From IMG/VR virus record IMGVR_UViG_3300045741_000082, positions 1 through 62,486 of that record: DNA of 62,486 nt, one strand, 5' to 3'. The translations under genes and the position numbers were made by a program. The notes below the pieces were generated by a model, which saw nothing but the letters and a program-made list of their open reading frames with translations, made no database searches and was not told the DNA's origin. Numbering within the stretch: the stretch's first letter is position 1; each line of letters starts with the position of its first letter. Below, in pieces: positions 2-62,486 of this stretch. Source of the stretch: a virus (Duplodnaviria > Caudoviricetes).

Positions 2-133
2 CTATATACGCTAGACTGTCTTAACCACGATAACAAGTTAATAAGTAAATATTCCCCTATAGAGTTGGATATGTATTGGGAGATAACTGGAGAATATGAC
101 AAAACTGTTAAAATACTATATGGTGCTAAATGA
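2..133 (+). CDS. Partial small protein (5' end outside the window) ending in the KxLY tag
   Basis: Frame open from position 2 (LYTLDCLNHD...DKTVKILYGAK*); its stop overlaps the next start (ATGA). Confidence 0.7.
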   Translation, partial: LYTLDCLNHDNKLISKYSPIELDMYWEITGEYDKTVKILYGAK

Positions 134-405
134 AATATGATTATAATACATTTAAAGAATTGTTTGATGCTCATATTCACTATGCTTATGAGGGTCAATA
201 TGGTTGCAGTTTGGATACTGAAGATCATGTTGTAGAGTGTGCGGCGTTCTATAAGCTCTACCTTAACTCTGACGGTACTGGACAATATAAGACTGAACAC
301 TTTACGTTTGACCCTAGACTGTGGCCTAAAGTAAAACTACTAGTAGAATTACTTACAGAAACACCAGCAGAAAAAATACTATTTAAGGAAATAAAAAAAG
401 GCTAG
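130..405 (+). CDS. Hypothetical protein with KILF tag variant
   Basis: 91 aa ORF coupled to the upstream gene; ends PAEKILFKEIKKG. Confidence 0.75.
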   Translation: MKYDYNTFKELFDAHIHYAYEGQYGCSLDTEDHVVECAAFYKLYLNSDGTGQYKTEHFTFDPRLWPKVKLLVELLTETPAEKILFKEIKKG

Positions 406-47484: not shown

Positions 47485-47711
47485 TATAAAAGTCCTCTTT
47501 TTGTTAGCCAATCTACGGCAAACTCATTAACTTTTTCAAATCTCTCTAAATTAGACAAATCCTTATAATCTGAGTTGTACATGGCCCCAGAAAATTCTGA
47601 GTAGATGGCAGCATATAAAGCGGAAATAACATCAGTTGCCTGTGCTTCTGGCTTTAGTTTACTTTTATCTATACAGAACATCTTATTTTTTCTATATATC
47701 AATTTTTCCAT
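47484..47711 (-). CDS. Hypothetical protein
   Basis: 75 aa, coupled on both sides. Confidence 0.65.
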   Translation of the reverse strand: MEKLIYRKNKMFCIDKSKLKPEAQATDVISALYAAIYSEFSGAMYNSDYKDLSNLERFEKVNEFAVDWLTKRGLL

Positions 47712-48022
47712 TATAGTGCTACCAAATGTAGTCTTCCTGCTCCACCAGTTCTAGTAACTCTTACAACTCTAACCAAGTGAGTATTATAAGTTAGTGGCAC
47801 AGTAGCCGTGAAAGCAGTTGACCCATAAAAATCAGTACCATTTGTTGAAAATTCTACTGTACCAGCCAAAGTACCGTCTGATTGAATCGTTACCTTTTCT
47901 GATACGTTACTTAGTTCTATCACTTCACTTGTGTTTGACGCATTTAGCAAATCAGTCAGTTCTAAATCCCCTACTAATGTAGGTTGTCTTACTTTCCTTG
48001 CTTGAGCTTTAGAAATAGCCAT
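47711..48022 (-). CDS. Small beta-sandwich protein, probably virion-associated
   Basis: 103 aa; GTVEFSTNGTDF...VVRVTRT. Confidence 0.6.
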   Translation of the reverse strand: MAISKAQARKVRQPTLVGDLELTDLLNASNTSEVIELSNVSEKVTIQSDGTLAGTVEFSTNGTDFYGSTAFTATVPLTYNTHLVRVVRVTRTGGAGRLHLVAL

Positions 48023-49644
48023 TAAATAACTCCTTTTACGACACTAAAATGCTGACCAGTATCGTGAAATAAATAAACCATCAAGTATCTTAAGGCATCT
48101 AATAACCCTTCATACCCTTCTGGTGTTTCATCGTAATCTTCTTTAAGGCTTCCGTTCTTACCCCTTTTAAATACTGCAGTACTTAAAGCATAAATAGTAT
48201 TAACACAATTTCTTGTAATAAATAATTTAGGTCTTTTTATGTGCTGCTTATTTTCATCAGTAAGTGGTTTTCCTTTTTGATCAAATTGTGGAAATTCTAA
48301 CCACAACCTTATCATATTTGCTCCAGTTTCCCTGTCTTGCTTAAGTCCTACTGGCCTTCTATCTTTTCCTAAAACAGCTTCAAAATCATCCCAAGCTGTT
48401 CTACCATTTAATTGAACCTGATCTCCAGAAATATCTGCTATGATGTCATTGCACCTTATATGGTGTTGTTTAGATATCTCTTTTAATTCAGACTTCCAAA
48501 TACTTATTGCTTGCTTAGTTAAGTCTTTTTCTTTGTCTATTATCTGCTGTGCTTGCATGTAGCTTGAAGTGTGTGGCGTAAATCTTTCATCGAAAATCAC
48601 CACATCTCCATACTTATTAACTTGTGCAAATATTGTACTAGCTGGTTTAGCAAAGTTGTGATCACAAGCAGCATATACTGGTCCTTCATCAGGATGCCAT
48701 ATATAATCTATAACATTCGGAAATCTATTAAAATCTGTTTCTTCTACTAAAAATCCAGGAAAACAACTATCAGAAACCGCCTCAAAATCTGCAAGATATT
48801 CTTGCTTAAATTTAACCAGCTTTCCAGACAATGCCGCTCTTCTGTACGCCGAATCTATTTCTTCCTTTGATTTTTCTGCACTTGACGATAGTAATGGATT
48901 ATCATAACTTGTTCTTTGAAAGGAACTCCATTCTGTCATATCGTTACTTACTTGAGCTTCTTCATCGAAGGTAATAGATACTTTCCCTTCTCGCTGTTTT
49001 TTTCCAGTTTGCCCATACAAAAATAACTTGTAGAAACTATTTTTTCCTCGTGGAGTACTGATAAATATAGCACTACCACTTTTATCCATCAAAGTTGGAG
49101 TTAGCATTTGAGTCCAGATATCTTCAAGAGAGGGGTTTAATGCCGCCTCATCCACAATGACTAGATCGTTTGCTTCCCCTGCCAAGCTATCTACGTTCTC
49201 CATAGATTTAGCTTCCAGAACAGAACCCCAAGGAGTCTCTAAATAATAGTCTCCTTTTTGGTTACGTGCTCTTCCCCCTCCAGGTTTTCCTGGACGAATA
49301 ATCTTTAATTGAATAACTAAGATATGATATAGTTCTCTAAACACCTTTTCGCACAAACTATAGTCAGGGGCTACTATCCACACCCTTCTATTCATTTGCA
49401 TTAGTACAGCTAAAGCTATCAAGGAGGTTAGTAGAGTTTTTCCCCATCGTCTTCCACAAGCTAGAGTTTTAAATCTAGCTATGTCTTTGATGACTTCTAA
49501 GTGTCCTTCATGTAAAGGCTGTATAAGCTTTCCTTGACTAGTTCTTACCTTGTTGTCACACAAATATTTAGCCAAACCTTCTATATCCAATTCATGGATT
49601 CTTAGAGGTTTACCTTCTACGTTAAACTGTTCTATTTGTGACAT
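48022..49644 (-). CDS. terL: Terminase large subunit
   Basis: Walker A CGRRWGKT, Walker B VIVDEAA, STPRG, FKQEYLADF and nuclease DALRY. Confidence 0.95.
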   Translation of the reverse strand: MSQIEQFNVEGKPLRIHELDIEGLAKYLCDNKVRTSQGKLIQPLHEGHLEVIKDIARFKTLACGRRWGKTLLTSLIALAVLMQMNRRVWIVAPDYSLCEKVFRELYHILVIQLKIIRPGKPGGGRARNQKGDYYLETPWGSVLEAKSMENVDSLAGEANDLVIVDEAALNPSLEDIWTQMLTPTLMDKSGSAIFISTPRGKNSFYKLFLYGQTGKKQREGKVSITFDEEAQVSNDMTEWSSFQRTSYDNPLLSSSAEKSKEEIDSAYRRAALSGKLVKFKQEYLADFEAVSDSCFPGFLVEETDFNRFPNVIDYIWHPDEGPVYAACDHNFAKPASTIFAQVNKYGDVVIFDERFTPHTSSYMQAQQIIDKEKDLTKQAISIWKSELKEISKQHHIRCNDIIADISGDQVQLNGRTAWDDFEAVLGKDRRPVGLKQDRETGANMIRLWLEFPQFDQKGKPLTDENKQHIKRPKLFITRNCVNTIYALSTAVFKRGKNGSLKEDYDETPEGYEGLLDALRYLMVYLFHDTGQHFSVVKGVI

Positions 49645-50686: not shown

Positions 50687-50998
50687 TTAATGTATTCCTT
50701 CATGAATATATCCTACTTTATTATTTTCTATACTCGTATAAACAACTGATCCATCTGGTAGGTCCATTCTATAAATAACCGATAAGCCTAAACGTGAACA
50801 CTCATTTTTTACGAGTGAGTACTGTTCTTTTGTTAAAGGTTGTCCGTGGTCAGTAAGAGTAGGTACTATCTCATACTTATCTGTTCCTGCCAGGATTTTA
50901 AAGAAATGGTCGTCAAACTGCTCGTTTTCTTCCACCAGCTTGTTAAATTGCTCTTCTGATAACTCTTCGGGTTTGTTGGGTTTTTTAGGTGTTGACAA
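50687..50998 (-). CDS. Hypothetical protein
   Basis: TTG start with GGAGAG SD, downstream of a copy of the repeated motif. Confidence 0.65.
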   Translation of the reverse strand: MSTPKKPNKPEELSEEQFNKLVEENEQFDDHFFKILAGTDKYEIVPTLTDHGQPLTKEQYSLVKNECSRLGLSVIYRMDLPDGSVVYTSIENNKVGYIHEGIH

Positions 50999-51019
50999 AG
51001 TTGCTCTCCCGTATATATC

Positions 51020-51041
51020 TATATGTATATACTAAGTAAAC
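51020..51041 (-). promoter_or_regulatory. Repeated motif GTTKACTTAGTATATACAYATA, copy 1
   Basis: Near-identical copies at 52087-52108 and 53893-53914, each heading a minus-strand gene group. Confidence 0.6.
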
Positions 51042-51042
51042 G

Positions 51043-51285
51043 TTAACCGTAAAGAATTTTCGTCATTTTTGTTATTTTTTCTTCTGGAATGATCTTTCCT
51101 AGCTGTTTTAGCCTATCTTTATGTATTGCCCTAATGTATTGGTGGTCCCATCTTCCATAATAGTCTACGTTAGCATCGTAACTCTTTATATCATAATATA
51201 TTCCAGTATCGTCTACATATACGTCTATGATTCTAAATAGTTGTTTTTGTTCAGTTAATAAGAAATCCCCTACATTAATTTCCAT
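51043..51285 (-). CDS. Small SH3/KOW-like protein with KxLY tag
   Basis: INVGDFL N-terminus; ends KMTKILYG*. Confidence 0.75.
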   Translation of the reverse strand: MEINVGDFLLTEQKQLFRIIDVYVDDTGIYYDIKSYDANVDYYGRWDHQYIRAIHKDRLKQLGKIIPEEKITKMTKILYG

Positions 51286-51601
51286 ACAATACCTTCATAG
51301 TTTTCTTATTAGCTTCAACCTTTTTTAGGAAATCTGGACTAATTTCTAACAGTACCTCATCTCCAATATAACCCACACGAGACACATATAACTTATTAGA
51401 GTTAAATAAAGACGGCCCAACAACCTCAAATAAGGACTTAAGGAAGGTACATCTAACTATCTCACCATCTGCAAAATCCTCTAATATGTTGCTAGTAGAC
51501 AACTTTTTATACATTTCTGGGCTTTTTCGTATATTAGCTTCTGCTATACTTATTACCATCTGATCGTCATCACTTATCGTCATTTCCTTTATCTTTCCCA
51601 T
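51275..51601 (-). CDS. Small protein with KxLY tag
   Basis: FADGEIVR; ends KTMKVLYGN*. Confidence 0.75.
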   Translation of the reverse strand: MGKIKEMTISDDDQMVISIAEANIRKSPEMYKKLSTSNILEDFADGEIVRCTFLKSLFEVVGPSLFNSNKLYVSRVGYIGDEVLLEISPDFLKKVEANKKTMKVLYGN

Positions 51602-51824
51602 ATAACACCTTTATAGCCTTTACAGAGGCTTCTGAGTTGTACTTGGCAAGAAGACCTTCCCTAACCATTAACTGCCTTGGGTAGGCCGTTTTATCGCCTT
51701 TTAGGACTATCCCACAAACGTAAGGGTCTGACGGTATCTGAGGATTTAGCATGTGTACTGTTTTTACCACATATATCCTATTTTCGTAGAATACAAGGTC
51801 TCCAATATCAAACTTACTATCCAT
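51570..51824 (-). CDS. Small SH3/KOW-like protein with KxLY tag
   Basis: KFDIGDLV; KAIKVLYG near the C-terminus. Confidence 0.75.
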   Translation of the reverse strand: MDSKFDIGDLVFYENRIYVVKTVHMLNPQIPSDPYVCGIVLKGDKTAYPRQLMVREGLLAKYNSEASVKAIKVLYGKDKGNDDK

Positions 51825-52047
51825 ATAGCACCAATAGGGTTAAAAGTCTTTTTTTATCAGTTATCTCTTTAGCTTTGTCTATTTCAATATTTATGGTATG
51901 TCTGTCTAAGATAAGCTCAAATAGGTTCAATCTATGCTTTCTTAAGGGTATACACTCAAAATATTCTTTACATTCGCTTAATTCGTTATAACCTATTCCA
52001 ACTACAATGTAGATGTCGCTTTGATATTCAATAAACCTAAATTTCAT
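51817..52047 (-). CDS. Small protein with a tag variant
   Basis: Ends LTLLVLYG*. Confidence 0.7.
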   Translation of the reverse strand: MKFRFIEYQSDIYIVVGIGYNELSECKEYFECIPLRKHRLNLFELILDRHTINIEIDKAKEITDKKRLLTLLVLYG

Positions 52048-52086
52048 ATAGTAATTTCAAGCTCTTATGAGAGCCTCCTACAATAC

Positions 52087-52108
52087 TATATGTATATACT
52101 AAGTCAAC
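52087..52108 (-). promoter_or_regulatory. Repeated motif, copy 2 (contains a TTGACT -35-like hexamer)
   Basis: GTTGACTTAGTATATACATATA, with TATTGT 16 nt after the hexamer. Confidence 0.6.
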
Positions 52109-52385
52109 GGTTATAAAGTATTTTGATCGTCTTTATTACGCTATTTAATTCGTTTCTGTGTATTTTAGTTAGGCACGGCTCAAATAGAAACGGGACCTTT
52201 ATAGGCGTTTTTGCCTCATAGCTTAGGCATTTTAGGGAATAGGTAGATTCTGATAAAGAAATTACTTCCCCCACCCAAACAGTAGGTATATTTTGAGCTG
52301 GTTTTAATTGGACTATTAATACGTCTCCAACCCTATGCCTAGCCTTTTTCGGCATGGGCCACCTAGCTCTTTTATTAGGTTTCAT
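52104..52385 (-). CDS. Small SH3/KOW-like protein with KxLY tag
   Basis: HRVGDVL; ends KTIKILYNR*. Confidence 0.72.
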   Translation of the reverse strand: MKPNKRARWPMPKKARHRVGDVLIVQLKPAQNIPTVWVGEVISLSESTYSLKCLSYEAKTPIKVPFLFEPCLTKIHRNELNSVIKTIKILYNR

Positions 52386-52683
52386 ATAGTAATTTCAATG
52401 CTTTAGAAGGTTCCAATATTTCTATTAAGTCCTTGTGAATCAAGTAATTAAATCTAAATATGGACAAATCCCCATTTACTACAATAGCCAAAGCCAACAT
52501 ACACGTCATGGCGTCTGAGATGCCACTTGAAGAGTTGTAGAAGTCTCTATCTACTACTTCAGCTAATGTTCCCTTCTCGATTTCTATGTGCTCGTTTGTA
52601 TAGTCGTGGGGGCCTCCGTAAAAAGAGTATTGCCTCTTAAACTTAACAATATCTCCTATTTTCGGTAGTTTAGCTAATTTCAT
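52375..52683 (-). CDS. Small SH3-like protein with KxLY tag
   Basis: Likely start MKLAKLPKIGDIV at 52683; ends KALKLLYET*. Confidence 0.72.
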   Translation of the reverse strand: MKLAKLPKIGDIVKFKRQYSFYGGPHDYTNEHIEIEKGTLAEVVDRDFYNSSSGISDAMTCMLALAIVVNGDLSIFRFNYLIHKDLIEILEPSKALKLLYET

Positions 52684-52903
52684 TAGGGTCCTTTTTAAAC
52701 AGGAGGTTAAAAGCATCTGTTTCTTCGTCCATCATAACTTCCACATCATCGACCTTCATGGGCAAACCGATCTTATCGACTCCTTTGTGTCCAGTACTGT
52801 GATTTACAGGCTTACATATTAGTAATTCTCCAATGATATTAACTACTTCGTAGATCTCATTGGTATTCTTAGCCCTTACTATGTTCTTTATCTTTACTTC
52901 CAT
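52670..52903 (-). CDS. Small SH3-like protein with tag variant
   Basis: KIKNIVR...IYEVV; DAFNLLFKK near the C-terminus. Confidence 0.7.
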   Translation of the reverse strand: MEVKIKNIVRAKNTNEIYEVVNIIGELLICKPVNHSTGHKGVDKIGLPMKVDDVEVMMDEETDAFNLLFKKDPNEIS

Positions 52904-53105
52904 AAAGTACTGTCCCTGCTAGGCATTTGGTCATTAAGTGACCTTGGTGGTGAGGTATTAATCCTGTATTAACTGATCCTATTATTTTGAATAGGATTCC
53001 TCTTTCTGTTATGTCCGTGACTATTGCCTTAATGTGTTGATATCTCTGGTCTATTGGCTCTATTACGTCTCCGACCTTATAGTTTATTGGTGGTATATCT
53101 TTCAT
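52869..53105 (-). CDS. Small SH3/KOW-like protein with tag
   Basis: YKVGDVI; LAGTVLYGSK near the C-terminus. Confidence 0.72.
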   Translation of the reverse strand: MKDIPPINYKVGDVIEPIDQRYQHIKAIVTDITERGILFKIIGSVNTGLIPHHQGHLMTKCLAGTVLYGSKDKEHSKG

Positions 53106-53108
53106 CGC

Positions 53109-53456
53109 CTACCGAGACACTTTCTTGCTACTATCGGGTAACGCTTCCAGTGAGCACTGGGCGCTTCGCTCCCCAGCTCGGTTAGAACTCATCAAATCCA
53201 TACTATTGTCTTTCTTATCATACAATACCTTAATGGCTGGATTACAAGGCTCATATCTACTATGAACTATACTTTGACCTAACCATATTGGACTATCAGT
53301 ATAACCATTACTAGTATTTCTAAGCCTATAATGTCTATAAGGATAACTTGTAAAGGATGATACTTCCTCTATTTCTATTATCTCATATATTGCAGTTGTA
53401 CTCAGTTTACGAATCTTATCGCCCATCTTATACTTAAACTTATCAAAATCAATCAT
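53109..53456 (-). CDS. Small SH3/KOW-like protein with KxLY tag
   Basis: KYKMGDKI; PAIKVLYDKK followed by a short tail. Confidence 0.72.
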   Translation of the reverse strand: MIDFDKFKYKMGDKIRKLSTTAIYEIIEIEEVSSFTSYPYRHYRLRNTSNGYTDSPIWLGQSIVHSRYEPCNPAIKVLYDKKDNSMDLMSSNRAGERSAQCSLEALPDSSKKVSR

Positions 53457-53461
53457 GATTG

Positions 53462-53689
53462 TTACTTTCTCTTCGAGAGTTCTTGTCGGTTTTGGTTAAA
53501 TAGGATTTTGGTAGCTTTTTTATTTTCTACTTTTACTAAGTCCTTACGATCATTCCTTAAAAATACGTCATATACTGATAACTCTTCTATTTTCTTAGTA
53601 TTTTTATTGATATACAGAGTTTTCTGTTCTAATAGGTCTGGTAGTATATTAGTCTCATCTATCACATATCTGCCTTCCTTTTTACTCAT
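53462..53689 (-). CDS. Small protein with KILF tag variant
   Basis: KATKILFNQ near the C-terminus. Confidence 0.7.
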   Translation of the reverse strand: MSKKEGRYVIDETNILPDLLEQKTLYINKNTKKIEELSVYDVFLRNDRKDLVKVENKKATKILFNQNRQELSKRK

Positions 53690-53892
53690 ATATAACCTAA
53701 ACCTTTACAATTGTCAAATATATCTACAGTTTTTTTCTGTTGGAGGGAGGGACTTTAGGGAGGGTGGTATACTACTATATAATCAACAGATTATAACTTC
53801 AGTATAGTATATCACCCTTTTCTATTGCGCTTAATTCTTTTTGAGAATTAAGCTTATATCACCTTATTATATAATACTGAATTCATATTCTT

Positions 53893-53914
53893 TATGTGTA
53901 TATACTAAGTAAAC
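53893..53914 (-). promoter_or_regulatory. Repeated motif, copy 3
   Basis: GTTTACTTAGTATATACACATA in the divergent intergenic region. Confidence 0.6.
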
Positions 53915-54089
53915 TTTAAACATAGTTCTTGATATTTTACTAAAAGTAGGTTACTATTTGAAATTATAGGGTTATTTCTTAAAATATTTATTTTTAGTCA
54001 TATCCTCTAGTATAACTGATACTTATAATAAGTGTAAGTTACTATAAATGTAAGTATGAGTTTATTAACTTTAAGTAGAGGTAAATCAA

Positions 54090-54299
54090 ATCAAATATAG
54101 TGGAGAGTATAAATTATATAAAGATTTGTACGTAGTCAATAAAAGAATCTGTAAAGTCTATTTGCCGCCTTTATTTATGGAAGGGGATAAGTATTACTGG
54201 ATTTATTATGTTGACAATGGGGACGTTTCTATAGTAAAAGAAAAAGATCTGAAGCTTCTAGATAAAAAGATTAGTAAGGTGTTGTATGGGAAGAAATGA
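54090..54299 (+). CDS. Unlisted Tudor-like small protein with KxLY tag (start uncertain)
   Basis: Open frame ...YWIYYVDNGDVSIVKEKDLKLLDKKISKVLYGKK*; AGAGGT SD precedes ATC at 54090, with TTG at 54126 as an alternative start. Confidence 0.65.
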   Translation: MKYSGEYKLYKDLYVVNKRICKVYLPPLFMEGDKYYWIYYVDNGDVSIVKEKDLKLLDKKISKVLYGKK

Positions 54300-54606
54300 T
54301 ATTAAAATAGGTGCTCTATTTATAGTAGAATATAATGATAGAAAGTATCTAATAGAGTTAATTGCTAGTGATGTATATACTCATAGTTACTATTGTTATG
54401 ATCATATAAATGATACTTACATTACTGCTCATATTAGTGATTTTGATGATCCTAATTTAAGATTACCTACTAAAGCTGAGTTATTGCTTTATAAGAATAA
54501 AGATAGACATAATGTTTATATGAAAGATGGATTTACTTATAGTTATGGCTATAGTCTTGATGGTTTTCCTTGTAATACTAAAAAAGATGGTAAAAATGAA
54601 GTATGA
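54286..54606 (+). CDS. Small SH3-like protein with tag variant
   Basis: IKIGALF; KAELLLYKNK. Confidence 0.7.
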   Translation: MGRNDIKIGALFIVEYNDRKYLIELIASDVYTHSYYCYDHINDTYITAHISDFDDPNLRLPTKAELLLYKNKDRHNVYMKDGFTYSYGYSLDGFPCNTKKDGKNEV

Positions 54607-54823
54607 GGTTGGAGATTATTTAAGGCTAGGAGTTGATACATACATATATTTTAAAGTAATTGAAGTTAAAGAAGATAGATATGTTCTTAAACGATGTATA
54701 TCTGACGGTAAAACTATAGTAGCATTATTTGTTACTATTGATAGATTAAGTACTATTTGTAAAGTTAGTAAAACTGAAGTGTTATTAAATAGTTTTAATA
54801 GGAGGTATAAATGGATGAGTTAG
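54596..54823 (+). CDS. Small SH3/KOW-like protein
   Basis: Likely start MKYEVGDYL at 54596; degenerate tag KTEVLLNS. Confidence 0.7.
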   Translation: MKYEVGDYLRLGVDTYIYFKVIEVKEDRYVLKRCISDGKTIVALFVTIDRLSTICKVSKTEVLLNSFNRRYKWMS

Positions 54824-55137
54824 AAGGTAAGGTATTAGTAGCTAAACCAGGTAAGCAAAAGGAGTTTGAAGAGGCTATGGCTAATACAGTCAAAATAGCT
54901 CAAGGTACTCTTGGCTGGAAAGGACAAGCTGAGATGATGTGGGAAATAGGTGCTGCTGAAGTTATGTTTGGTATTAAAACTAAAAGTAAGAAAAAGGGTG
55001 TAGTTCAATTAGAAGATATGATTAGACAAGCTTACTTACAAACTATAATGGATAATGCAGAATGGGTTCCTGAAGAGCAAGCTAAAGGTAGACATCAGGC
55101 CAATAAGATTCTGTTTGGTGAGAAAGACCAAAAATAA
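54811..55137 (+). CDS. Small protein with KILFG tag
   Basis: AGGAGG SD; QANKILFGEK near the C-terminus. Confidence 0.75.
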   Translation: MDELEGKVLVAKPGKQKEFEEAMANTVKIAQGTLGWKGQAEMMWEIGAAEVMFGIKTKSKKKGVVQLEDMIRQAYLQTIMDNAEWVPEEQAKGRHQANKILFGEKDQK

Positions 55138-55158
55138 ATTTTTTTTAAAATTTTTAGT

Positions 55159-55653
55159 TTAGCTATTATTTTTATTACTTTTTTTAAGGTTATCCCTTGC
55201 CCACTTTGGTTGTAAATTTGTATAGTGACAAGCTTTCTTAACCTCTTCTGGGTTATTAAGATCGAACCAAGATAAAGGAGTTTTGTGATCTATATGCCAT
55301 TGACCATAATTATCTAGAGTCATATCTGGTTCAAATAAGTTGGTAATATGTTTTAGAAATTCACTATAAGTGCAACCTAAGTATTTAATTGCAGAAACAT
55401 CACTTAATTGCTTTTTCCATATGCCTCTAGCCCGTCTTCTCAAATTATTTCTAATTCTTTGCTCAGGCCTTTTATTGCTCTTTGCTATAGATCTTCTATA
55501 GGATTCTGAGTTGGCGTATCTATTTGGTCTATGCCTTTTATTATCACAGGTTTTACACCTACTCTGTATTCCATTAGATCTAGAAGAACATCTATAAAAT
55601 TCTTCTTTGGATTTCTTTTCATTACATGTAAAACAAGTATATAAAGATTTCAT
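55159..55653 (-). CDS. Free-standing HNH-type endonuclease (WHIDH family), paralogue of 30497-31084
   Basis: CFTC...CKTC, LGCT, NYGQWHIDHKTPL and HYTNLQPKWARDN. Confidence 0.87.
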   Translation of the reverse strand: MKSLYTCFTCNEKKSKEEFYRCSSRSNGIQSRCKTCDNKRHRPNRYANSESYRRSIAKSNKRPEQRIRNNLRRRARGIWKKQLSDVSAIKYLGCTYSEFLKHITNLFEPDMTLDNYGQWHIDHKTPLSWFDLNNPEEVKKACHYTNLQPKWARDNLKKSNKNNS

Positions 55654-55659
55654 AAAGAA

Positions 55660-55688
55660 ATAATATCATCTGGTGGGGTTAGTGTCAA
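55660..55688 (-). promoter_or_regulatory. Sigma-70 promoter giving a leaderless HNH mRNA
   Basis: TTGACA-N17-TATTAT with extended -10 TGn; ATG follows 6 nt after the -10 box and there is no SD. Confidence 0.75.
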
Positions 55689-55892
55689 TCGATTTTAAAA
55701 TTTTTTTAAAAATTGAGAAAGAGGGTTAGTACCCCTGGAGGGGTTAGGGGAGGTGACGTTTTTTGACCGTATCCCCTTCTGCAACAATCGTGCCAATGTC
55801 TCATTTTGATACATAATACGGATGTCTCATAATGATAAAAAAGCCCCTGTACCAGAACGATACAGAGGCCAAAGACATGGGGGAATGTCTTA

Positions 55893-56090
55893 TTATGACA
55901 CAGATGGGGTTGTCTGTGCCAATTTGATACACTGTTCTAGTTCATTTACTTCAACCAATTTTGTGTTATATTGTGCCTTAAGTGTTTCAAGTTGCAATTG
56001 TGCTGTATTGAGACGTGCTTCAATTTGAGACAACTGAATTTTCTTAGTGTTTAATTTTGATACATTAAGTTCTACATTAAATTTTCTCAT
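55893..56090 (-). CDS. Small coiled-coil protein
   Basis: 65 aa, AGGAG SD, heptad pattern. Confidence 0.65.
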   Translation of the reverse strand: MRKFNVELNVSKLNTKKIQLSQIEARLNTAQLQLETLKAQYNTKLVEVNELEQCIKLAQTTPSVS

Positions 56091-56154
56091 AATGATACTC
56101 CTATTATTTTAAATTAAGGCTATACCACAATAGTATAGCCTATGTTATTATGTA

Positions 56155-56397
56155 TTATGCAGTTGTAACTTTGGATCGAATAACTGCTTTCTGCTTTCTG
56201 ATATATCGAGCCACTGTCTCAAATCGAGTATATTGACCTGTTAATGCTTGAATAATGCCTACTACTGATTGTGCATAATCATTTGATGCAGCATAACCCA
56301 ATGTGATAAGCCAAGTCTCACCACGAGTCTCAATATGAGACTTTACTACTTCTTTTACTTGAGTACCTATTGATTGTTTATTGTTTATGTTATACAT
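56155..56397 (-). CDS. Small protein, possibly HTH-like
   Basis: AGGGG SD; FETVARYIRK; lies downstream of the -24/-12 element at 56450. Confidence 0.7.
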   Translation of the reverse strand: MYNINNKQSIGTQVKEVVKSHIETRGETWLITLGYAASNDYAQSVVGIIQALTGQYTRFETVARYIRKQKAVIRSKVTTA

Positions 56398-56726
56398 TTT
56401 ATTTCCCCTTGTTATAACTCACTTAATTGTGAATCATACTTACTACTATTGCATTATGAATGCCAACAATAGCTCAGTGAATTCAATAGTCTCAGTATGA
56501 TATTATGTTGAACTTATATACACTATTATGAGATTTTCTACTTATATTAGTAGTTTCAATAGGTTAAGTCACTGTAGAACTATTAGTCACTTTACATAGG
56601 TTTGACATACCATAATGATACGTTATCCGGTGTTGAGTTATGGTCTATAGGTATATAATCCGGAAACTGTATTATATTGAGACTGGAATAGGATTTGCAC
56701 CTATACCAGCCTGTATTGAATTTAGA

Positions 56727-57404
56727 TTACTTGACTTTTGCCCAATTTGTATTGGTATAGGACTTTTGGCCATGATACACTAGACCTATTTTATTATTCG
56801 GTCCTAGTGCAGCTACTAGATCGTCATTAGTTGCATCGGTATAACCTGCAGCCAACAGGTCAGTCTCAGATGGAAACACTTTGGAGTGTCTATGATTGAT
56901 ACAATCAATAAGGTGATCTTGCTTGCCACCGAAACTATATATCAGTCTAAAGTTATTAGGTATATTGCCATTATAAGACAACTCATTAAAAATCTGTATC
57001 ATTTTGGTATAGGCATAGAATCTCACATCGAGACACTTCTCAATAATCTCAATCCAAGACATGGCATAATCTTTGCTATAGAAGTCACCAGAATCATGTA
57101 TCCTTATGAGACACTTATTATCTTTTACTTGGGATTTCATGTATTTAAGTCTTATTTCGGCCACCATCAAATCAACAAAATTCTCGTTTTGAGTCAACTT
57201 AAGTCTTTCTTCGTAGGCATTCACTACATTCCCAAAACGATACGTACCACTTCGAGCATAGCAGCCTGTAGCGCAAACCCCTGCCATTGGACACGTCTTA
57301 AGTCCTGTATTAGACAAGAATGCAGGTATACCGAAGTTATACACGTCTATTCCATTTTGAGACGATTTTTTCATTTTCCCGTTTTGGGTCAATATACTAC
57401 CCAT
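56727..57404 (-). CDS. Gp88-like phage protein (Cys cluster)
   Basis: TCPMAGVCATGCYA, RIHDSGDFY, FYAYTK and PNNFRLIYS motifs. Confidence 0.8.
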   Translation of the reverse strand: MGSILTQNGKMKKSSQNGIDVYNFGIPAFLSNTGLKTCPMAGVCATGCYARSGTYRFGNVVNAYEERLKLTQNENFVDLMVAEIRLKYMKSQVKDNKCLIRIHDSGDFYSKDYAMSWIEIIEKCLDVRFYAYTKMIQIFNELSYNGNIPNNFRLIYSFGGKQDHLIDCINHRHSKVFPSETDLLAAGYTDATNDDLVAALGPNNKIGLVYHGQKSYTNTNWAKVK

Positions 57405-57582
57405 ATATCACCTCAACTTCCGATTTTAAGTATAGTTCTTCACCAGTATCATAGGCCACTTCGAAGTGAGCTGATGATTCACCACAACATCCTATGCCAT
57501 TGGCAGGATGCATACAATAAGGACAAACTTCAATTTCCTCAATGATATCAGCTACATGTAGTTTAATCTTATTCTGTCTCAT
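57397..57582 (-). CDS. Small Cys-rich protein
   Basis: CPYC...CCGE..HF. Confidence 0.7.
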   Translation of the reverse strand: MRQNKIKLHVADIIEEIEVCPYCMHPANGIGCCGESSAHFEVAYDTGEELYLKSEVEVIYG

Positions 57583-57583
57583 A

Positions 57584-57775
57584 TTAAGCCACCTTTCTAT
57601 TATCGTTATTAAATTTAATAATTAGTAGTTCTATTATGCAATCTTTAATAGTAGACCTATGAACTGATAGTTGCCCCAATATTTTAAGACTAGCATTGGG
57701 TCCTCTTGCTAGTTCCTTCGCTGTAAGAGACTCGTTATACTTTAATAATTTGTCCAGTTCTATTAGTGTAAGCAT
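57584..57775 (-). CDS. Hypothetical protein
   Basis: GAGGGG SD; first gene downstream of the -24/-12 element at 57868. Confidence 0.65.
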   Translation of the reverse strand: MLTLIELDKLLKYNESLTAKELARGPNASLKILGQLSVHRSTIKDCIIELLIIKFNNDNRKVA

Positions 57776-58598
57776 TGTATTTCCCCTCGTTATATTATTA
57801 CTATACTCATCGGTTTATTATTAAATAACTTTAATTAATTATTTAATATTTACATAATTGTATGTTATGCAGTATAGGTGCCAATCTCATATTGATATTT
57901 GTATGTAATTTCAAGCAGTTATATAATGTTTCAATAGTAGAATTTGTATAACTTTTAGTCAATTTAAGCATTATTAGTAATATAGTAATAATATCATATA
58001 CTTGTAGGCTGTATGAGTTATATACGATTTGACAGTCATTTTGAGACATAATCCGTAAGCTGTATCATTTTAGGACTGGCACGGTCCTTGCATGGGGTAT
58101 TCTTAGTGTCAATTTGATACAAAATCCGGAAGTTGTATCATACTGAGATGGCATGCCTATTGCATCTGTACTGTATTGAGGCGGCCCACACTAATACGTC
58201 TCATAACGATATTGGCATGAATAATGCATATAGCAATATCTATGCCATGTCTCATATTGAAACGTCTCAATTTGAGATGTCTCATAATGGGGTTGTCTCA
58301 TAAAGGGACTAAAAGAGCTAAATTCCTATAGAAAAAATTATTACTATATGTAATATATGGAGTAAGTATGTGTTATTATTGGATTATTTGTATATTTATT
58401 GTTATAAATTGTGTAAATAGTAGTAATATTAGTGGTTTATGTGTTATTTTTAGTAATAATTGTAAATTTATTAGGAATAACAGGGGTTTGAGTGAAACCG
58501 TAGTTCTTTTAGACAATTGTAAAATGACCTTAATTCTCATTATTCCTCAATATATACAACAACTTACACAAAAACTATCCTACATACCATGTCAAATA

Positions 58599-58611
58599 TA
58601 TCAACACCTTA
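58599..58611 (+). promoter_or_regulatory. IHF-type site upstream of the -24/-12 element at 58636
   Basis: TATCAACACCTTA matches WATCAANNNNTTR exactly. Confidence 0.6.
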
Positions 58612-58704
58612 TATCGTGTATATTACTTATAAACATGGCACCAAATATGCATATAGTTTACCGTATGGAAAACAAGCCTATATTAAATCTAAGGGGGGTA
58701 TAAA

Positions 58705-58944
58705 ATGATCTTAATGGACTTAAATAAGAGAGAGTTAATAAAGAATAAGCTACACAAAGATAAACTACCTAAATACTACTTTAGCCTATACCTGTTATAT
58801 AGGCTTAACGACTCTATTTATGTTATAGGCTATAATGACATTGACATTATCATTAGGTTAGAGAGCATATTTAAAGCATCTAACAGAGAAACGGCAGTTA
58901 CTAGTAGCTATCCTTTTGAAGTAATGGATTGGAGTACAAAATAA
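58705..58944 (+). CDS. Hypothetical protein
   Basis: AGGGGGG SD; first gene downstream of the element at 58636. Confidence 0.6.
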   Translation: MILMDLNKRELIKNKLHKDKLPKYYFSLYLLYRLNDSIYVIGYNDIDIIIRLESIFKASNRETAVTSSYPFEVMDWSTK

Positions 58945-59059
58945 ACATATTAAACTTGTTAAACGAACACAATGCAGAACTAGGACTTAAACCCTTAGTA
59001 GTAGAACAGCCACCAGAACCTATTGAAACTATTAACGAAGAAGACCAAGAGGCAATAGA

Positions 59060-59275
59060 ATGATAATATCTAAGTACATAACCATCAACGATACCATAAT
59101 AGACACTACTAATATAACTAGTGTAACCTATATACCAGAAACAGGCCCTACTGATGAGTACGACTATAACAGTAGAATGTGCGTAGTATTCAATAACGGT
59201 TATACTGTATCTATCCACTGTACTGAGAAACAGTATAATGACCTACGAATACATCTAGGAGCTTTTTTTATATGA
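59060..59275 (+). CDS. Hypothetical protein
   Basis: 71 aa with GAGG SD. Confidence 0.65.
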   Translation: MIISKYITINDTIIDTTNITSVTYIPETGPTDEYDYNSRMCVVFNNGYTVSIHCTEKQYNDLRIHLGAFFI

Positions 59276-59405
59276 TTAACTCTATTAAGTACTTTCTATT
59301 CTGTTTACTTATGGCTACTGTTATGGTGTGTTTGGTGTGGCCGACTGTCATCTCGGATATATTGCTTTACAGATTTAAGGGTTACATTAACAAAGAGAAT
59401 AACTA

Positions 59406-59630
59406 ATGCTTAAAATAGGCCAGTTTCCAATAGGTTATCAATTTAAAGAGGAAATCTACCCTAAAGAAGTGATAATGACAGTTATTGGATACGATTCACT
59501 ACACCATTCGTACAGGATTAGGTGGGTAGAACATGATGGAAAAGTTGCTGTAGGTCCTTATTACTCACACGAATATATAGCTACCAAAGAGCCAGTTGAT
59601 AAGAACTATAAACTACTATATGGAGTTTAG
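59406..59630 (+). CDS. Small SH3-like protein with KxLY tag
   Basis: FPIGYQF; ends KNYKLLYGV*. Confidence 0.72.
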   Translation: MLKIGQFPIGYQFKEEIYPKEVIMTVIGYDSLHHSYRIRWVEHDGKVAVGPYYSHEYIATKEPVDKNYKLLYGV

Positions 59631-59632
59631 TT

Positions 59633-59872
59633 ATGAAAATAGTAACTGAAAGTCAAGCTTGGGATATGATAACTAGAAGCCTTATAGATACTAGTAGAGA
59701 GACATTAGTAAATATTATAATTGGTTATTTACGAGAATATGGTGATAGTACAACAGGTAAATTTACAGTATCGGGATTAGCTAATGTATTAGAAAGTCTT
59801 TTTGATGATAAGTTTAAAGTTGTGGCTGATTCTAGTGCAGCCCATATCTTATATAATGATAAGAAGAGTTAA
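59633..59872 (+). CDS. Small protein with tag variant
   Basis: SAAHILYNDK near the C-terminus. Confidence 0.7.
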   Translation: MKIVTESQAWDMITRSLIDTSRETLVNIIIGYLREYGDSTTGKFTVSGLANVLESLFDDKFKVVADSSAAHILYNDKKS

Positions 59873-59874
59873 CT

Positions 59875-60093
59875 GTGTATAAATTAGGTGATTGCTTTAG
59901 AAACAAACACACAGGCCATCTAGTTGAAATCATTGAGGTTCATACCACATTTGATGGCGTTAACTACTATACTGTAAAGAAGTTAAACAAACCCACTATA
60001 CAAACATTTCAAGTTAACTACTCGTTATTACAAAATAATTACGAAAAAAGCAACTTGGCACAGGTCTTGTATAGTAATAAGAGTAACAAGTGA
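59875..60093 (+). CDS. Small SH3/KOW-like protein with tag variant
   Basis: YKLGDCF; NLAQVLYSNK near the C-terminus. Confidence 0.72.
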   Translation: MYKLGDCFRNKHTGHLVEIIEVHTTFDGVNYYTVKKLNKPTIQTFQVNYSLLQNNYEKSNLAQVLYSNKSNK

Positions 60094-60100
60094 GGTTATT

Positions 60101-60334
60101 ATGAAAATCCAATTAAGTGCAAAATGTAGCGATCTATTTAGTTGCTCTGTAACTGATAATAAAGACAATCTATTAGTTGATGGTTATGATGGATATGTGC
60201 CAGCATTTATGCCAGATGAGCATTATGGCGACTACGTAATACTTGATATTGACGTTAAAACAGGTCAAATCCTTAATTGGAGAAAAGATGCTGAAAAGTT
60301 AGTAAGACAATTCATTAAAGAAGAGACTAAATAA
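60101..60334 (+). CDS. Hypothetical phage protein
   Basis: GAGG SD; AKCSD...YDGYVP..MP..HYGDYVILDID. Confidence 0.75.
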   Translation: MKIQLSAKCSDLFSCSVTDNKDNLLVDGYDGYVPAFMPDEHYGDYVILDIDVKTGQILNWRKDAEKLVRQFIKEETK

Positions 60335-60690
60335 GAGTTTATTATGAATATATTAATACAAACCACACTAACTCTATTACTATTAAGCTTATCTATATTT
60401 GCTATAGTGTTATTAATACCATATTTTCCCTTATTCATACTTATATGGGCTATAAGCCAATATGTAACAGGAGCACAGCACAAATGAATAGATTTAAAGT
60501 CAATTGTATTAAAATACAACTATATTTACAGTCTTATATGAATTTCTTACGTAAAAGAGATTCTTTATGATTAAAAGAGTATTCAATACGTTAGTTCTTA
60601 TTTTAGGGTGTTATTTGTTGTTGGTGGCGGTTTCTTTAACCATAAACTTAATATACTTATATTTTAAGTATTTGTTTTAAGAGGTATTTA

Positions 60691-60909
60691 ATGGGTTTTA
60701 TTAATAGTAATGATAGTTATGGTATTTGGTACGATAGAGATAACGTAAAGCATTATGGATTAATAGGACTATACGATAGTGATACTGATCTAGTAGAGTT
60801 TATTATGCTACCTGACTACAAACGAATTATTATATCAATTGACAGTATTGATTTAGTACAATGTCCAATAGAAAAGAAAGCAATTAAGGTATTATATGAA
60901 AGTAAGTAA
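60691..60909 (+). CDS. Small protein with KxLY tag
   Basis: GAGG SD; ends KAIKVLYESK*. Confidence 0.72.
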   Translation: MGFINSNDSYGIWYDRDNVKHYGLIGLYDSDTDLVEFIMLPDYKRIIISIDSIDLVQCPIEKKAIKVLYESK

Positions 60910-61339
60910 ATTATTAATACTATTGACTTTAATACAAACAGCTTGCACTCCGATTGGAAAACCATTAATGCCAAGAACAAATCCTTTGGTAGTACCTTAT
61001 GTTAAACAATGGGAAAATATAACTAATAGAAAGCAGCACACACCAATTATAATAGGTACAGTAAGTGATGAATTTTTTGGTATTTGTTATAAGTCTAGCG
61101 ACCCTTATTATAATATTATTATTCTTAATAAAAACTTTTTCTATGGTTTAGATAGTACTGAAAAATTAGAATTAGTTATGCATGAGTTAGGACACTGTGA
61201 TTTGGGTTATGAGCACAATAGTAAACCTGCATTAATAGATGGTTGTCCTTATAGTATAATGAATGCTTATCTATTTAATTCATCATGCTTTAATGCTGAT
61301 TATGATCATTATATAAGTGAATATTTAAATGAAGAGTAA
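60896..61339 (+). CDS. Lipoprotein zinc metallopeptidase (metzincin-like)
   Basis: Signal peptide with lipobox-like QTAC; HELGHCDLGYEH zinc motif; Met-turn SIM. Confidence 0.78.
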   Translation: MKVSKLLILLTLIQTACTPIGKPLMPRTNPLVVPYVKQWENITNRKQHTPIIIGTVSDEFFGICYKSSDPYYNIIILNKNFFYGLDSTEKLELVMHELGHCDLGYEHNSKPALIDGCPYSIMNAYLFNSSCFNADYDHYISEYLNEE

Positions 61340-61387: not shown

Positions 61388-62486
61388 ATGAAAAGAATGA
61401 TAATTAGTTTAGCGGTATTGGCTGCTATTGGATGTTCGCCAAAGAAGGAAAAGGTAAGAATAGTAAATGGCAAAGATGGTACAAATTGTTCTACCGAAGC
61501 TGCAGTAAATGGAGTTTCTATCAAATGTGGAGATAGTGAACCTTTAACAGTTACCAATGGTAAAGATGGTGCTAAAGGTGATCAAGGTCTTAAAGGAGAC
61601 AAAGGCGATAAAGGAGATCAAGGTTTTACAGGACTAACTGGTTCTGTAGGTGCCACTGGAGCACAAGGTATTCAAGGCGTAGCTGGTACTAATGGTAAAG
61701 ATGGAGTTAATGGTAAGAATGGACTAGATGGTAAAAATGGGTCTCATGTTTATTCAGCTAATAGAAATCCTTTAGTAACTGATTCTGGAGCTAATGATGA
61801 TGTGTTTATAAATACAGTTACGTTTGATTTTTATCAAATGGTGGCTGGAGTTTGGACACTTAAAGGAAACATGAAGGGTTCCAATGGTTTAAATGGTAAA
61901 GATGGAGCAACTATTTATAGTGCCAATAGGCCACCAGTAGACACAGAAGGTTCTAACAATGATCTATTTGTTGACAATACTACTTTTAACTTTTATCAGA
62001 AAGTAAATAATATGTGGGTACTTAAAGGAAATATCAAAGGCGCTAAAGGAGATACTGGTAGTCAGGGTATAGCTGGTACTAATGGTTCTAATGGATTAAC
62101 AGGTGCAACGGGAGCTAATGGGGCGGTAGGCCCTCAAGGTCCTAAAGGCGACACAGGTAGCGTTGGCCCAACTGGAGCTACTGGCCCTAAGGGTGCAACT
62201 GGAGATGTCGGTCCTCAAGGCCTTATTGGTCCTCAAGGCCCTGCAGGTACTAGTGGAGCAAACTTCACAGAATATACATTTGCTGCACAAAAAGTTTGTT
62301 ATAAAATCAATGATCTATATTTTTTGCAAGAAAGTACTTCTATTAAGGTATTTAGTGATAGTTTATGTAAGACTCAAGTTGCAGCACTTCAAGGTGATGA
62401 TGTGACTCTATATCATAATAAAGTACTGTATGTCGGAGATGAAATTGTTAATGATGTGAATTACTCTCAAGCAAAGATGGCTATTA
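61388..62486 (+). CDS. Collagen-like lipoprotein (runs off the window; absent from the ORF track)
   Basis: AAGGAG SD; MKRMIISLAVLAAIG-C lipobox; long G-X-Y tracts (GKDGAKGDQGLKGDKGDKG...) and two repeated globular modules. Confidence 0.85.
   Translation, partial: MKRMIISLAVLAAIGCSPKKEKVRIVNGKDGTNCSTEAAVNGVSIKCGDSEPLTVTNGKDGAKGDQGLKGDKGDKGDQGFTGLTGSVGATGAQGIQGVAGTNGKDGVNGKNGLDGKNGSHVYSANRNPLVTDSGANDDVFINTVTFDFYQMVAGVWTLKGNMKGSNGLNGKDGATIYSANRPPVDTEGSNNDLFVDNTTFNFYQKVNNMWVLKGNIKGAKGDTGSQGIAGTNGSNGLTGATGANGAVGPQGPKGDTGSVGPTGATGPKGATGDVGPQGLIGPQGPAGTSGANFTEYTFAAQKVCYKINDLYFLQESTSIKVFSDSLCKTQVAALQGDDVTLYHNKVLYVGDEIVNDVNYSQAKMAI

Follow-up and report, generated by a model that had tools for sequence, protein, structure and literature searches.

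We analysed a stretch of 62,486 nucleotides (hereafter the window) from a virus of the Caudoviricetes (Duplodnaviria), positions 1 to 62,486 of IMG/VR record IMGVR_UViG_3300045741_000082, in which many small proteins end in one short peptide of the type K-[VIL]-L-[YF]-G (hereafter the tag). CheckV rates the record as linear and 54% complete, the full genome being that of a myovirus of ~113 kb; no circular closure of the contig was seen, as end repeats are absent and the frames at the two ends do not join. The minus strand carries the genes of the large terminase (48022-49644), the portal (43932-45608), the major head protein (41245-42576) and the tail sheath (26499-27941), and other products include an M15-type endolysin, a tail-fibre assembly protein, a GP88-family protein, and LAGLIDADG and HNH endonucleases. 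Neither tRNA genes nor replication genes were seen in the window. A related contig of 113,147 nucleotides from a metagenome bin (loci L019-L024; hereafter C2) is syntenic with window positions 2433-57396 in reverse orientation and covers the half that the window is missing, with a family A DNA polymerase and DnaB-like helicase, ligase, ERF, RecA-like and RuvC-like proteins, and it further encodes a ribonucleotide reductase, a protein with sigma-70 region 4 and a MoxR/VWA pair. Its proteases are a ClpP (PF00574, 1.2e-23), a trypsin-like peptidase and a subtilase, which together with the MoxR/VWA pair form a set unusually rich for a phage. The proteins with the tag (carriers) in the window are as follows, where bits and "matrix" refer to the position matrix described below, AF2 stands for an AlphaFold2 model, and "holds the ATG" means that the tag codons contain the start codon of another gene.

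2..133, plus strand: 5'-truncated carrier, KTVKILYGAK* (13.2 bits)
130..405, plus strand: 91-residue carrier, ETPAEKILFKE; its body is alpha/beta and not SH3-like (30 homologues, AF2)
51043..51285, minus strand: 80-residue carrier, KMTKILYG*; Tyr is TAC, so there is no embedded start; a promoter-like element follows (17.6 bits)
51275..51601, minus strand: 108-residue carrier, KTMKVLYGN*; holds the ATG of 51043-51285; missing from C2 (20.4 bits)
51570..51824, minus strand: 84-residue carrier, KAIKVLYG plus 8 residues, with an SH3-like barrel; holds the ATG of 51275-51601 (13 orthologues, AF2)
51817..52047, minus strand: 76-residue carrier, LTLLVLYG*; holds the ATG of 51570-51824 (8 orthologues, matrix)
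52104..52385, minus strand: 93-residue carrier, KTIKILYNR*; no embedded start (matrix)
52375..52716, minus strand: 113-residue carrier, KALKLLYET*; holds the ATG of 52104-52385 (matrix)
52670..52903, minus strand: 77-residue carrier, DAFNLLFKK... (matrix)
52869..53105, minus strand: 78-residue carrier, LAGTVLYGS...; holds the ATG of 52670-52903 (matrix)
53109..53456, minus strand: 115-residue carrier, PAIKVLYDK, with a 36-residue tail; Shine-Dalgarno (SD)-like sequence and ATG of a 9-codon frame (18.0 bits)
53462..53689, minus strand: 75-residue carrier, KATKILFNQ... (matrix)
54126..54299, plus strand: 57-residue carrier, KISKVLYGKK*; holds the ATG of 54286-54606 (matrix)
54286..54606, plus strand: 106-residue carrier, KAELLLYKN, with a 37-residue tail (matrix)
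54811..55137, plus strand: 108-residue weak carrier, QANKILFGE (6.6 bits)
59406..59630, plus strand: 74-residue carrier, KNYKLLYGV* (9.2 bits)
59633..59872, plus strand: 79-residue carrier, SAAHILYND... (8.3 bits)
59875..60093, plus strand: 72-residue carrier, NLAQVLYSN..., with an N-terminal LGD hairpin signature (matrix, signature count)
60691..60909, plus strand: 72-residue carrier, KAIKVLYESK*; holds the ATG of 60896-61339 (19.6 bits)
54527..54823, plus strand: open reading frame (ORF) with the peptide KTEVLLNS, not a supported tag, and a VGD hairpin signature (below 3 bits)

The original prediction had quoted 19 such peptides, together with KTEVLLNS as a degenerate copy, and all of them were located in their ORFs. 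For an independent test, 74 motif instances, all from other genomes, were turned into a position matrix, which was scanned over the window's 242 six-frame ORFs of at least 40 residues (28,808 positions). The top 16 sites (at least 11 bits) all fell in ORFs of that list, and 18 of the 19 carriers scored at least 8.3 bits, with only 54811-55137 lying lower. The claim of about 20 small proteins with a common C-terminal tag therefore holds, and the set turned out to be larger than claimed, being clade-wide, whereas the degenerate copy gained no support. Off the list, at least 8 bits was reached by an antisense ORF of 48 residues (1469-1615, 10.7 bits), by 62163-62405 (8.0 bits) and by an internal site in a 573-residue protein (8.5 bits). 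Two further proteins that look tag-like by eye, 47203-47511 (...EMLYKGKKKK) and 57397-57582 (...EVIYG*), were set aside with less than 3 bits; the first, on the minus strand, is a head-module protein kept in all relatives, with the C-terminus ...DREMLYKGKKKK.

Comparison with shuffled controls, the check proposed along with the original prediction, gave a clear enrichment. When a greedy gene set was used, which is crude in that it wrongly dropped the carriers 51570 and 51817 and kept some antisense ORFs, [VIL]L[YF] occurred in the last 15 residues of 17 of the 61 window genes of 150 residues or fewer versus 0 of the 31 larger ones, and 2000 residue shuffles of the small genes gave a mean of 2.0 and a maximum of 8; such a tail was also present in 16 of the 149 discarded other-frame ORFs. 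The same ending is found in 37 of the 142 non-structural genes of C2 versus 1 of its 56 structural genes (2000 shuffles, 4.2 +/- 2.0, maximum 13), and the commonest tripeptide in C2 tails is LYG, with 18 occurrences versus 3 elsewhere. When C2 was left out of its training, a matrix gave 9 bits or more at 34 sites among the 36,122 C2 positions, 30 of them no more than 15 residues from the end, 3 at 21-25 residues and 1 internal. The tag is nearly always C-terminal. The C2 carriers range from 65 to 199 residues, and most of them lie in or around the replication half. Related contigs found through the terminase (loci L001-L013 at 66-91% identity, and the distant L014 at 26%) have the same ending on runs of small ORFs upstream of the terminase, and the motif is a property of the whole phage clade, not of the window genome alone.

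The carriers themselves are nearly all without assigned function. None of the 18 complete window carriers matched Pfam above the curated cut-off, none of the 10 searched against PHROGs had a match below E 0.1, and ten larger C2 carriers had no Pfam or PHROGs match above threshold except one RNase_T exonuclease, whose tag-like AKVLF, 15 residues from the end, is ambiguous. Cultured phages gave no match for 51000-55200 at the nucleotide level or for 51570-51824 at the protein level. Full-text literature searches, covering listings and abstracts, returned no account of the motif or of a comparable proteome-wide phage tag.

To obtain a consensus, matches to [VILM]L[YF] in the last 45 residues were pooled from ORFs of up to 200 residues in the early regions. 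The 134 matches were reduced to 110 by a filter on charged residues (at least 17%) and to 92 by hand removal of 18, of which 8 were internal matches in the family of 50687-50998 and 10 were considered either hydrophobic ORFs of another frame or internal matches. With the aromatic residue numbered 0, the tag reads small or Ala(-5), hydrophobic(-4), K/R/E(-3), V/I/L(-2), Leu(-1), Tyr/Phe(0) and usually Gly(+1). A Ser/Thr/Asp-Pro helix cap frequently precedes it; Ser/Thr is common at -7, as is Asp at -8 and likewise Pro at -9. At the positions free of selection bias, Ala(-5) is found in 32, Lys(-3) in 44 and Gly(+1) in 45 of the 92 instances, and position 0 is Phe in 20. The tag is usually followed by 0-11 polar, disordered residues, although across all instances the tail past the aromatic residue spans 0-37 residues and is exactly one residue long in 17 of the 92. 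Lysine flanks the tag in the window and in C2, whereas acidic residues do so in the relative L006 (ELVKVLYEEKE, MLRLLYGEEE, LARILYAEDPE). Another variant, I-[ST]-x-L-L-[YF], was seen in L010. A conserved 103-residue protein, 50687-50998 on the minus strand, whose family occurs in 9 relatives, contains an internal tag-like stretch (GLSVIY, GIKLLY or GLKVLY) that is followed by ~30 residues and was not scored as a tag.

The synonymous codon variation that the original prediction had noted in the tag is indeed present, since all 6 codons for Leu, 4 for Val and 4 for Gly are used, and the protein-level selection it had proposed is borne out. In 69 ortholog pairs the codon for Leu(-1) showed 58 synonymous and 0 non-synonymous differences, a count from which the anchor dropped about two orthologues without a match. 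Among the 13 orthologues of 51570-51824, which are 42-80% identical, K72, V73, L74 and Y75 are invariant, and the preceding linker and the following tail are variable. In the 30 homologues of 130-405 (49-86% identical), the tag is the most conserved stretch, with L75, E77, T78, A80, E81, K82 and L84 invariant, and it is followed by 2 to 30 unrelated residues. Judging from these alignments, in which Leu(-1) changes only synonymously and tag residues stay invariant amid drifting flanks, selection acts on the amino acids of the tag.

The bodies in front of the tag were compared by structure prediction and by profile searches. In the AlphaFold2 model of 51570-51824 (13-row alignment), residues 1-60 form an SH3-like barrel with a predicted local distance difference test (pLDDT) score of at least 90, followed by a helix (64-75) in which pLDDT falls from 64 to 51 and a disordered tail below 50. 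Foldseek matched this barrel to PWWP, the MRG15 chromo barrel, KapB and HspQ (probability 0.97-1.0, template modelling (TM) score 0.4-0.56), and a tentative placing of bodies in the SH3-like or chromo-barrel class, whose members have a small five-stranded barrel with an optional C-terminal helix, comes from this one modelled barrel, none of whose matches reached E <= 0.001. The model of 130-405 (30-row alignment) has a helix, five strands and a helix, mostly at pLDDT 83-95 (mean 84), with the tag helix 79-89 at pLDDT ~50, and its alpha/beta body had no fold match in the PDB (best E 1.1). Three C2 carriers of 156-180 residues belong to yet another family, and the ESM Atlas model of 59633-59872 was poor and gave no usable match. 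When the barrel family was searched with HMMER over 1.84 billion representatives, 108 proteins were found, including 28 small full-length relatives; of the 26 examined, 20 retain the tag, among them GLY, ALY and VLH variants, and the other 6 stop immediately ahead of it. As far as these models go, the tag is on at least two predicted folds, unpacked in both models and separable from the body.

The original prediction had called the bodies unrelated, which is only partly correct: at least two folds are predicted, and at the same time a sizeable subset has in common an SH3-like paralogue group or hairpin signature. BLAST among carrier bodies gave one pair at 2e-4 and otherwise noise. However weak, links did appear with hhalign between 13 ortholog families with the tag removed (top probabilities 56, 44, 35, 27 and 23), where 13 of 78 body pairs fell at E < 0.0064 versus 1 of 222 pairs with control families (control top probability 7.9). 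About 10 of the 13 families are weakly linked by these body-only profiles, always via the N-terminal hairpin. A hydrophobic-G-D-hydrophobic signature in this hairpin region is found in 7 of 19 window carriers, compared with 1 of 12 small ORFs that have no tag, and in 9 of 43 C2 carriers, compared with 2 of 79 untagged proteins there (shuffles 0.7); this looser form was used instead of a stricter hairpin expression, which matched only 4 of 19 and 3 of 43. The hairpin of the barrel family (F-x-x-G-D-x-V-x-Y-x-G-x-x-Y) also has matches in large proteins, as up to 13 repeats, and in the chitin-binding module of one solved chitinase. About 80 of the 108 HMMER matches are such large repeat proteins with a match to the hairpin only, and a PDB sequence search with the 51570-51824 alignment likewise matched only the N-terminal hairpin, to a chitin-binding-module-like sequence (E 0.33). 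The barrel hairpin and CBM5/12-type modules may be linked by shared ancestry or by convergence.

Many tags have a second coding role, as their codons provide the start of the next gene. In 46 of the 92 tags, Tyr as TAT and the following G give an ATG, which in 40 cases is the start of an ORF of 40 residues or more, the next gene; in the window, 7 of 18 tags have such an embedded start. The Lys-Val codons of these 40 overlapping tags are mostly AAG-GTN, an SD-like AAGG(T) located 6-7 bases before the ATG, so that AAG-GTN-YTN-TAT-GGN (K-V-L-Y-G) spells an SD-like sequence, a spacer and the next ATG in 43% of cases. The phage uses strong SD sequences, an SD-like 4-mer being present at 36 of the 41 confidently placed gene starts (background 0.18). 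Overlapping tags differ from the other 52 in the third base of Lys (G in 28/40 versus 19/52), the first base of position -2 (G in 23/40 versus 18/52), Tyr (40/40 versus 32/52) and Gly(+1) (28/40 versus 17/52), and the excess of Val, Tyr and Gly is due to this dual coding. The motif as such is not explained by it, because it persists in the 52 tags that have no embedded start, with Ala(-5) in 21 and Lys(-3) in 24 of them, and because the tag of the 130-405 family is mostly of the Phe type, in which an ATG is impossible. The tags of 53109-53456 and 59406-59630 contain an SD-like sequence and an ATG that opens only a 9-codon frame, possibly a relic of a lost downstream gene. The gene 51275-51601, which is in the window and missing from C2, lies precisely between two tag/start junctions. 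Such a presence and absence fits a cassette-like gain and loss of genes, in which each gene would be one cassette from one embedded ATG to the next, and this layout may ease the gain and loss of whole genes.

The minus-strand array also contains three copies of a 22-nt element, GTT[TG]ACTTAGTATATACA[TC]ATA, which reads as a sigma-70-like promoter with -35 TTGACT, 16-17 nt and a -10-like hexamer, the spacer being unusually conserved.

51020..51041, minus strand: promoter-like element copy 1, GTTTACTTAGTATATACATATA, just after a tag and before 50687-50998
52087..52108, minus strand: promoter-like element copy 2 (TTGACT, 16 nt, TATTGT)
53893..53914, minus strand: promoter-like element copy 3, heading the minus-strand array

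Three copies are found at syntenic sites of C2 (4993, 6682 and 7493), and with up to 5 mismatches none was found elsewhere in the window or C2 save a weak 5-mismatch site at window 56646-56667. These elements suggest that the arrays are transcribed by the host polymerase, probably early.

On balance, we consider it probable that the tag is a portable C-terminal peptide by which many small proteins dock to one shared partner. The anatomy is that of a docking peptide: ten residues form a capped amphipathic helix in which three hydrophobic residues stand in a row and Gly serves as a stop, and this helix stays invariant amid drift and is followed by a disordered tail. In the mechanism that we propose, small accessory proteins of many kinds, in a clade of myoviruses of ~113 kb, would bear this one peptide as a helix outside the folded body that would fold on binding; residues -4, -2, -1 and 0 would then sit buried in a hydrophobic groove of one partner, and docking would bring many variable bodies to the same machine. 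The notion of interchangeable domains that plug into one hub, as originally proposed, is supported as far as the tag is concerned, which is portable, C-terminal, under selection and, as in 6 of 26 barrel relatives, losable. Several points weigh against this reading. First, the hub was not found, and docking is inferred from anatomy alone. Second, the expression used for pooling fixes positions -2 to 0, so that the pooled conservation there is partly circular, and the ortholog alignments and cross-genome matrices escape this circularity only in part. Third, the weak body-only links make a common descent of many carriers likely, which could account for part of the sharing. Fourth, only two bodies were modelled, and the low confidence of the helix in both could reflect shallow alignments (13 and 30 rows) instead of flexibility. 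Finally, constraint at the RNA level contributes in the 43% of tags that overlap a start site.

Three candidate readers, namely a protease system, the procapsid and a sliding clamp, rank below the shared-docking reading as such. In the first case, the tag would serve turnover or tethering, its helix being read by an AAA+ protease (host ClpXP, ClpAP or Lon, perhaps phage ClpP), either as a scheduled degron for accessory proteins or as an SspB-like tether that delivers the target of each body. These two modes taken together are unlikely, although they are the likeliest of the alternatives. The tag is C-terminal, exposed and hydrophobic/aromatic, C2 encodes ClpP and two further proteases, and ClpP homologues are found on a contig of 110,097 bp, while the longest contig with a 130-405 homologue is also 110,097 bp. 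SspB consists of a beta-barrel body, a flexible linker and a short C-terminal ClpX-binding tail, to which the barrel, linker and short tail seen here are parallel, and the Lon specificity factor HspQ (5ycq, TM 0.52-0.56) is similar to the barrel model; however, SH3-like barrels are ubiquitous. The C-motifs of ClpX read the terminal residue with its free carboxylate, and the same applies to the Lon pocket, whereas here a variable tail of up to 37 residues follows the aromatic residue. The tag does not belong to the free-end degron class (ssrA/ClpX, Lon), as its aromatic residue is rarely near the extreme C-terminus, and it does not conform to the HbYX motif of proteasome activators, in which Tyr is penultimate, as only 2 of the 19 window carriers end in LYG* and Phe is frequent. 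According to PMC11882793, the Lon N-domain binds C-terminal degrons of small heat-shock proteins, its pocket reads the terminal residue, and LarA docks on Lon via a C-terminal degron.

A bolder version of the tether can be drawn from the same arrays. They may represent a phage library of substrate receptors, in which the variable bodies would grip host or defence proteins and the helix would tether all of them to one machine, for which an AAA+ protease acting together with the phage ClpP would be the most attractive choice. We hold this to be rather unlikely. If it were true, one host machine would be redirected at dozens of targets, a bacterial-virus counterpart of the F-box/PRANC families, and the dual coding of tag and start would make the receptors plug-and-play cassettes.

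The carriers could also be one very diverged paralogue family that arose from a single ancestor of barrel plus C-terminal helix, with the helix as its slowest-evolving part and no need for a common partner. The tandem arrays with the same junction architecture, the weak body-only links, the enrichment of the hairpin signature in carriers, and the fact that chromo-barrel and PWWP folds do bear C-terminal helices are in line with this explanation. It is nevertheless rather improbable, as the predicted fold of 130-405 differs and has no barrel, the C2 carriers from 156 residues upwards form a separate family, confidence is lowest for the helix in each of the two models, the helix is missing from 6 of 26 barrel homologues, and most carriers are without the hairpin signature.

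As for the procapsid, the tag could be a capsid-loading address whose docking in its interior, on the coat, scaffold or portal, would lead to the small proteins being packaged and injected. The minus-strand array is contiguous and co-oriented with the terminase and head module, a point in favour of such loading. However, the scaffold-like protein of the window (42594-43538) ends in ...IGEALKQIKSGTPNNVFRTK and has no tag, most C2 carriers lie around the replication half, and the arrays open with sigma-70-like elements that were not seen ahead of the structural operons. Loading of this kind is accordingly a doubtful explanation.

If the peptide were a by-product of gene packing, it would be what remains where the last codons of a gene also have to supply the next gene with its ribosome-binding site and ATG, and inserted genes would inherit it. 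The used ATG in 40 of 92 tags, preceded by AAGGTR, the strong SD usage, the presence or absence of 51275-51601 exactly at two junctions, and the vestigial SD and ATG with 9-codon frames in two tags would all be accounted for. Yet the motif is retained in the 52 tags without an embedded start, the Leu(-1) codon is free to change and the amino acid never does, Phe-type tags that cannot encode an ATG are invariant over 30 homologues, and the ATG always has the same frame offset from the tag, which an RNA constraint alone would not demand. Because purifying selection on amino acids is seen in tags without a downstream overlap, gene packing has only a minor role, and as the whole explanation it is very improbable.

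The comparison with the sliding clamp of T4 came with the original prediction. According to published accounts, the gp45-binding LDFLF is an amphipathic helix, a ligase loop inserts L231, F233, L234 and F235 into the pocket of the gp45 clamp, gp43 ends in EKASLDFLFG (PMC6212786), and gp33 and gp55 use the same motif (PMC6212786, PMC9690074). The analogy stands at the level of the sequence pattern only: the 92-instance consensus matches hydrophobic-x-hydrophobic-L-[FY], with the same order as in gp43 and the ligase, namely hydrophobic(-4), charged(-3), hydrophobic(-2), Leu(-1), aromatic(0) and Gly(+1). A clamp gene was not found, as C2 has no match to PF00712, PF02768, PF09116, PF02916 or PF00705 and the window, at 54% completeness, none to PF09116; a 232-residue protein of C2 was tried as a clamp and rejected because its ESM Atlas model is not clamp-like. 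None of the 22 annotated C2 proteins ends in the tag, including the polymerase, ligase, helicase, ERF, RecA-like, RuvC-like, exonuclease and sigma-like proteins, and the polymerase is of family A. The bacterial beta-clamp-binding motif QL[SD]LF has Gln(-4), Leu(-3), a variable residue(-2), Leu(-1) and Phe(0), and is not matched either, since the tag has its hydrophobic and polar positions swapped, with a hydrophobic residue at -4, K/R/E at -3 and V/I/L at -2. A clamp tool-belt, in which the tails would bind a phage or host clamp, is therefore highly unlikely, and with no clamp gene on C2 and untagged DNA enzymes the shared docking tag is preferred over membership in a T4-type clamp system. Least likely of all, and barely credible, is a membrane-targeting amphipathic helix of the MinD/FtsA type. 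In the window and C2 the tag, as a short amphipathic helix at the C-terminus flanked by Lys, does resemble the ...LKRLFGG tail of MinD, but the acidic flanks in L006 are ill-suited to anionic membranes and the invariance of Leu, aromatic residue and Gly goes beyond what a generic membrane helix needs.

Several other features of the window and its relatives were noted. Immediately upstream of the portal, towards the terminase, is a gene for a LAGLIDADG homing endonuclease (45706-46413, minus strand). The plus-strand array ends with an endonuclease VII/HNH-like gene (55159-55653, minus strand), and two more HNH/Srd-like paralogues are present in the relative. A small lipoprotein-like protein (60896-61339, plus strand) with a weak phage-metallopeptidase match (E 9e-4) adjoins another lipoprotein-like protein (61388-62485, plus strand, running off the end) with long collagen-type G-X-Y repeats and repeated NGKDG units. 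The 1835-residue protein at 33310-38817 (minus strand) contains several internal direct repeats at 34959-38595, of 76-280 nt and 69-78% identity. The capsid protein of the window is ~28% identical to siphovirus proteins of Xanthomonas, Stenotrophomonas and Pseudomonas and does not resemble those of epsilon15-like phages. A host call from the bin holding C2 (labelled Ignavibacteriaceae; contigs C1, C3 and C4, loci L028-L030) was dropped, as the GC contents of its contigs (0.565, 0.495 and 0.436, versus ~0.35 for the phage) show a bin of mixed base composition, which gives no host.

In conclusion, about one in four of the non-structural genes in a clade of uncultured ~113-kb phages bears one and the same peptide, and nearly all of these genes are without assigned function. 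Finding the reader of the tag would place dozens of dark-matter genes in a common pathway at once, and it would reveal whether adaptor libraries, cargo-loading addresses or timed-degradation tags are used by phages at the scale of a proteome. The tag can be a simple single-peptide handle for pull-downs, and its overlap with translation starts is a clear case of dual coding which suggests how such arrays gain and lose members.

Short docking peptides common to a few phage proteins, such as the clamp-binding tails of T4, are known already. As described in PMC6212786 and PMC9690074, those tails are like the tag in being short amphipathic helices at or near the C-terminus, of the order hydrophobic, charged, hydrophobic, Leu, aromatic and sometimes Gly, and several proteins use them to reach one pocket, as the carriers here would. 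They differ in that the carriers here are small proteins without assigned function, not a polymerase, ligase or sigma-like protein, that position -3 is mostly Lys rather than Asp, and that there are dozens of carriers per genome versus about five. The adaptor SspB and the Lon activators HspQ and LarA combine a small barrel with an exposed C-terminal tethering peptide, as the barrel carriers may do, and HspQ is among the fold matches; unlike the tag, however, the peptide read by the Lon pocket needs its terminal residue. Scaffold-type capsid-docking tails, such as the helix-and-hook of 80alpha/CpmB, are set apart by the fact that the scaffold-like protein is untagged here and the carriers are accessory genes. 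The PeSL regulatory cassettes, which Arbiol, Comeau and Krisch are said to have described in 2010, reportedly flank small early genes of T4-type phages and are likewise a repeated junction sequence between small, fast-turning-over early genes, whereas the junction here lies inside the coding sequence and is conserved as protein, with a DNA identity too low for ordinary homologous recombination. The poxvirus ankyrin/PRANC F-box-like families have variable target-binding bodies and one conserved C-terminal docking module. They are eukaryotic, with a domain of 40-50 residues and a known hub (SCF) in place of the ten-residue helix seen here, but in both cases a viral multigene family would join variable bodies to a common C-terminal docking module.

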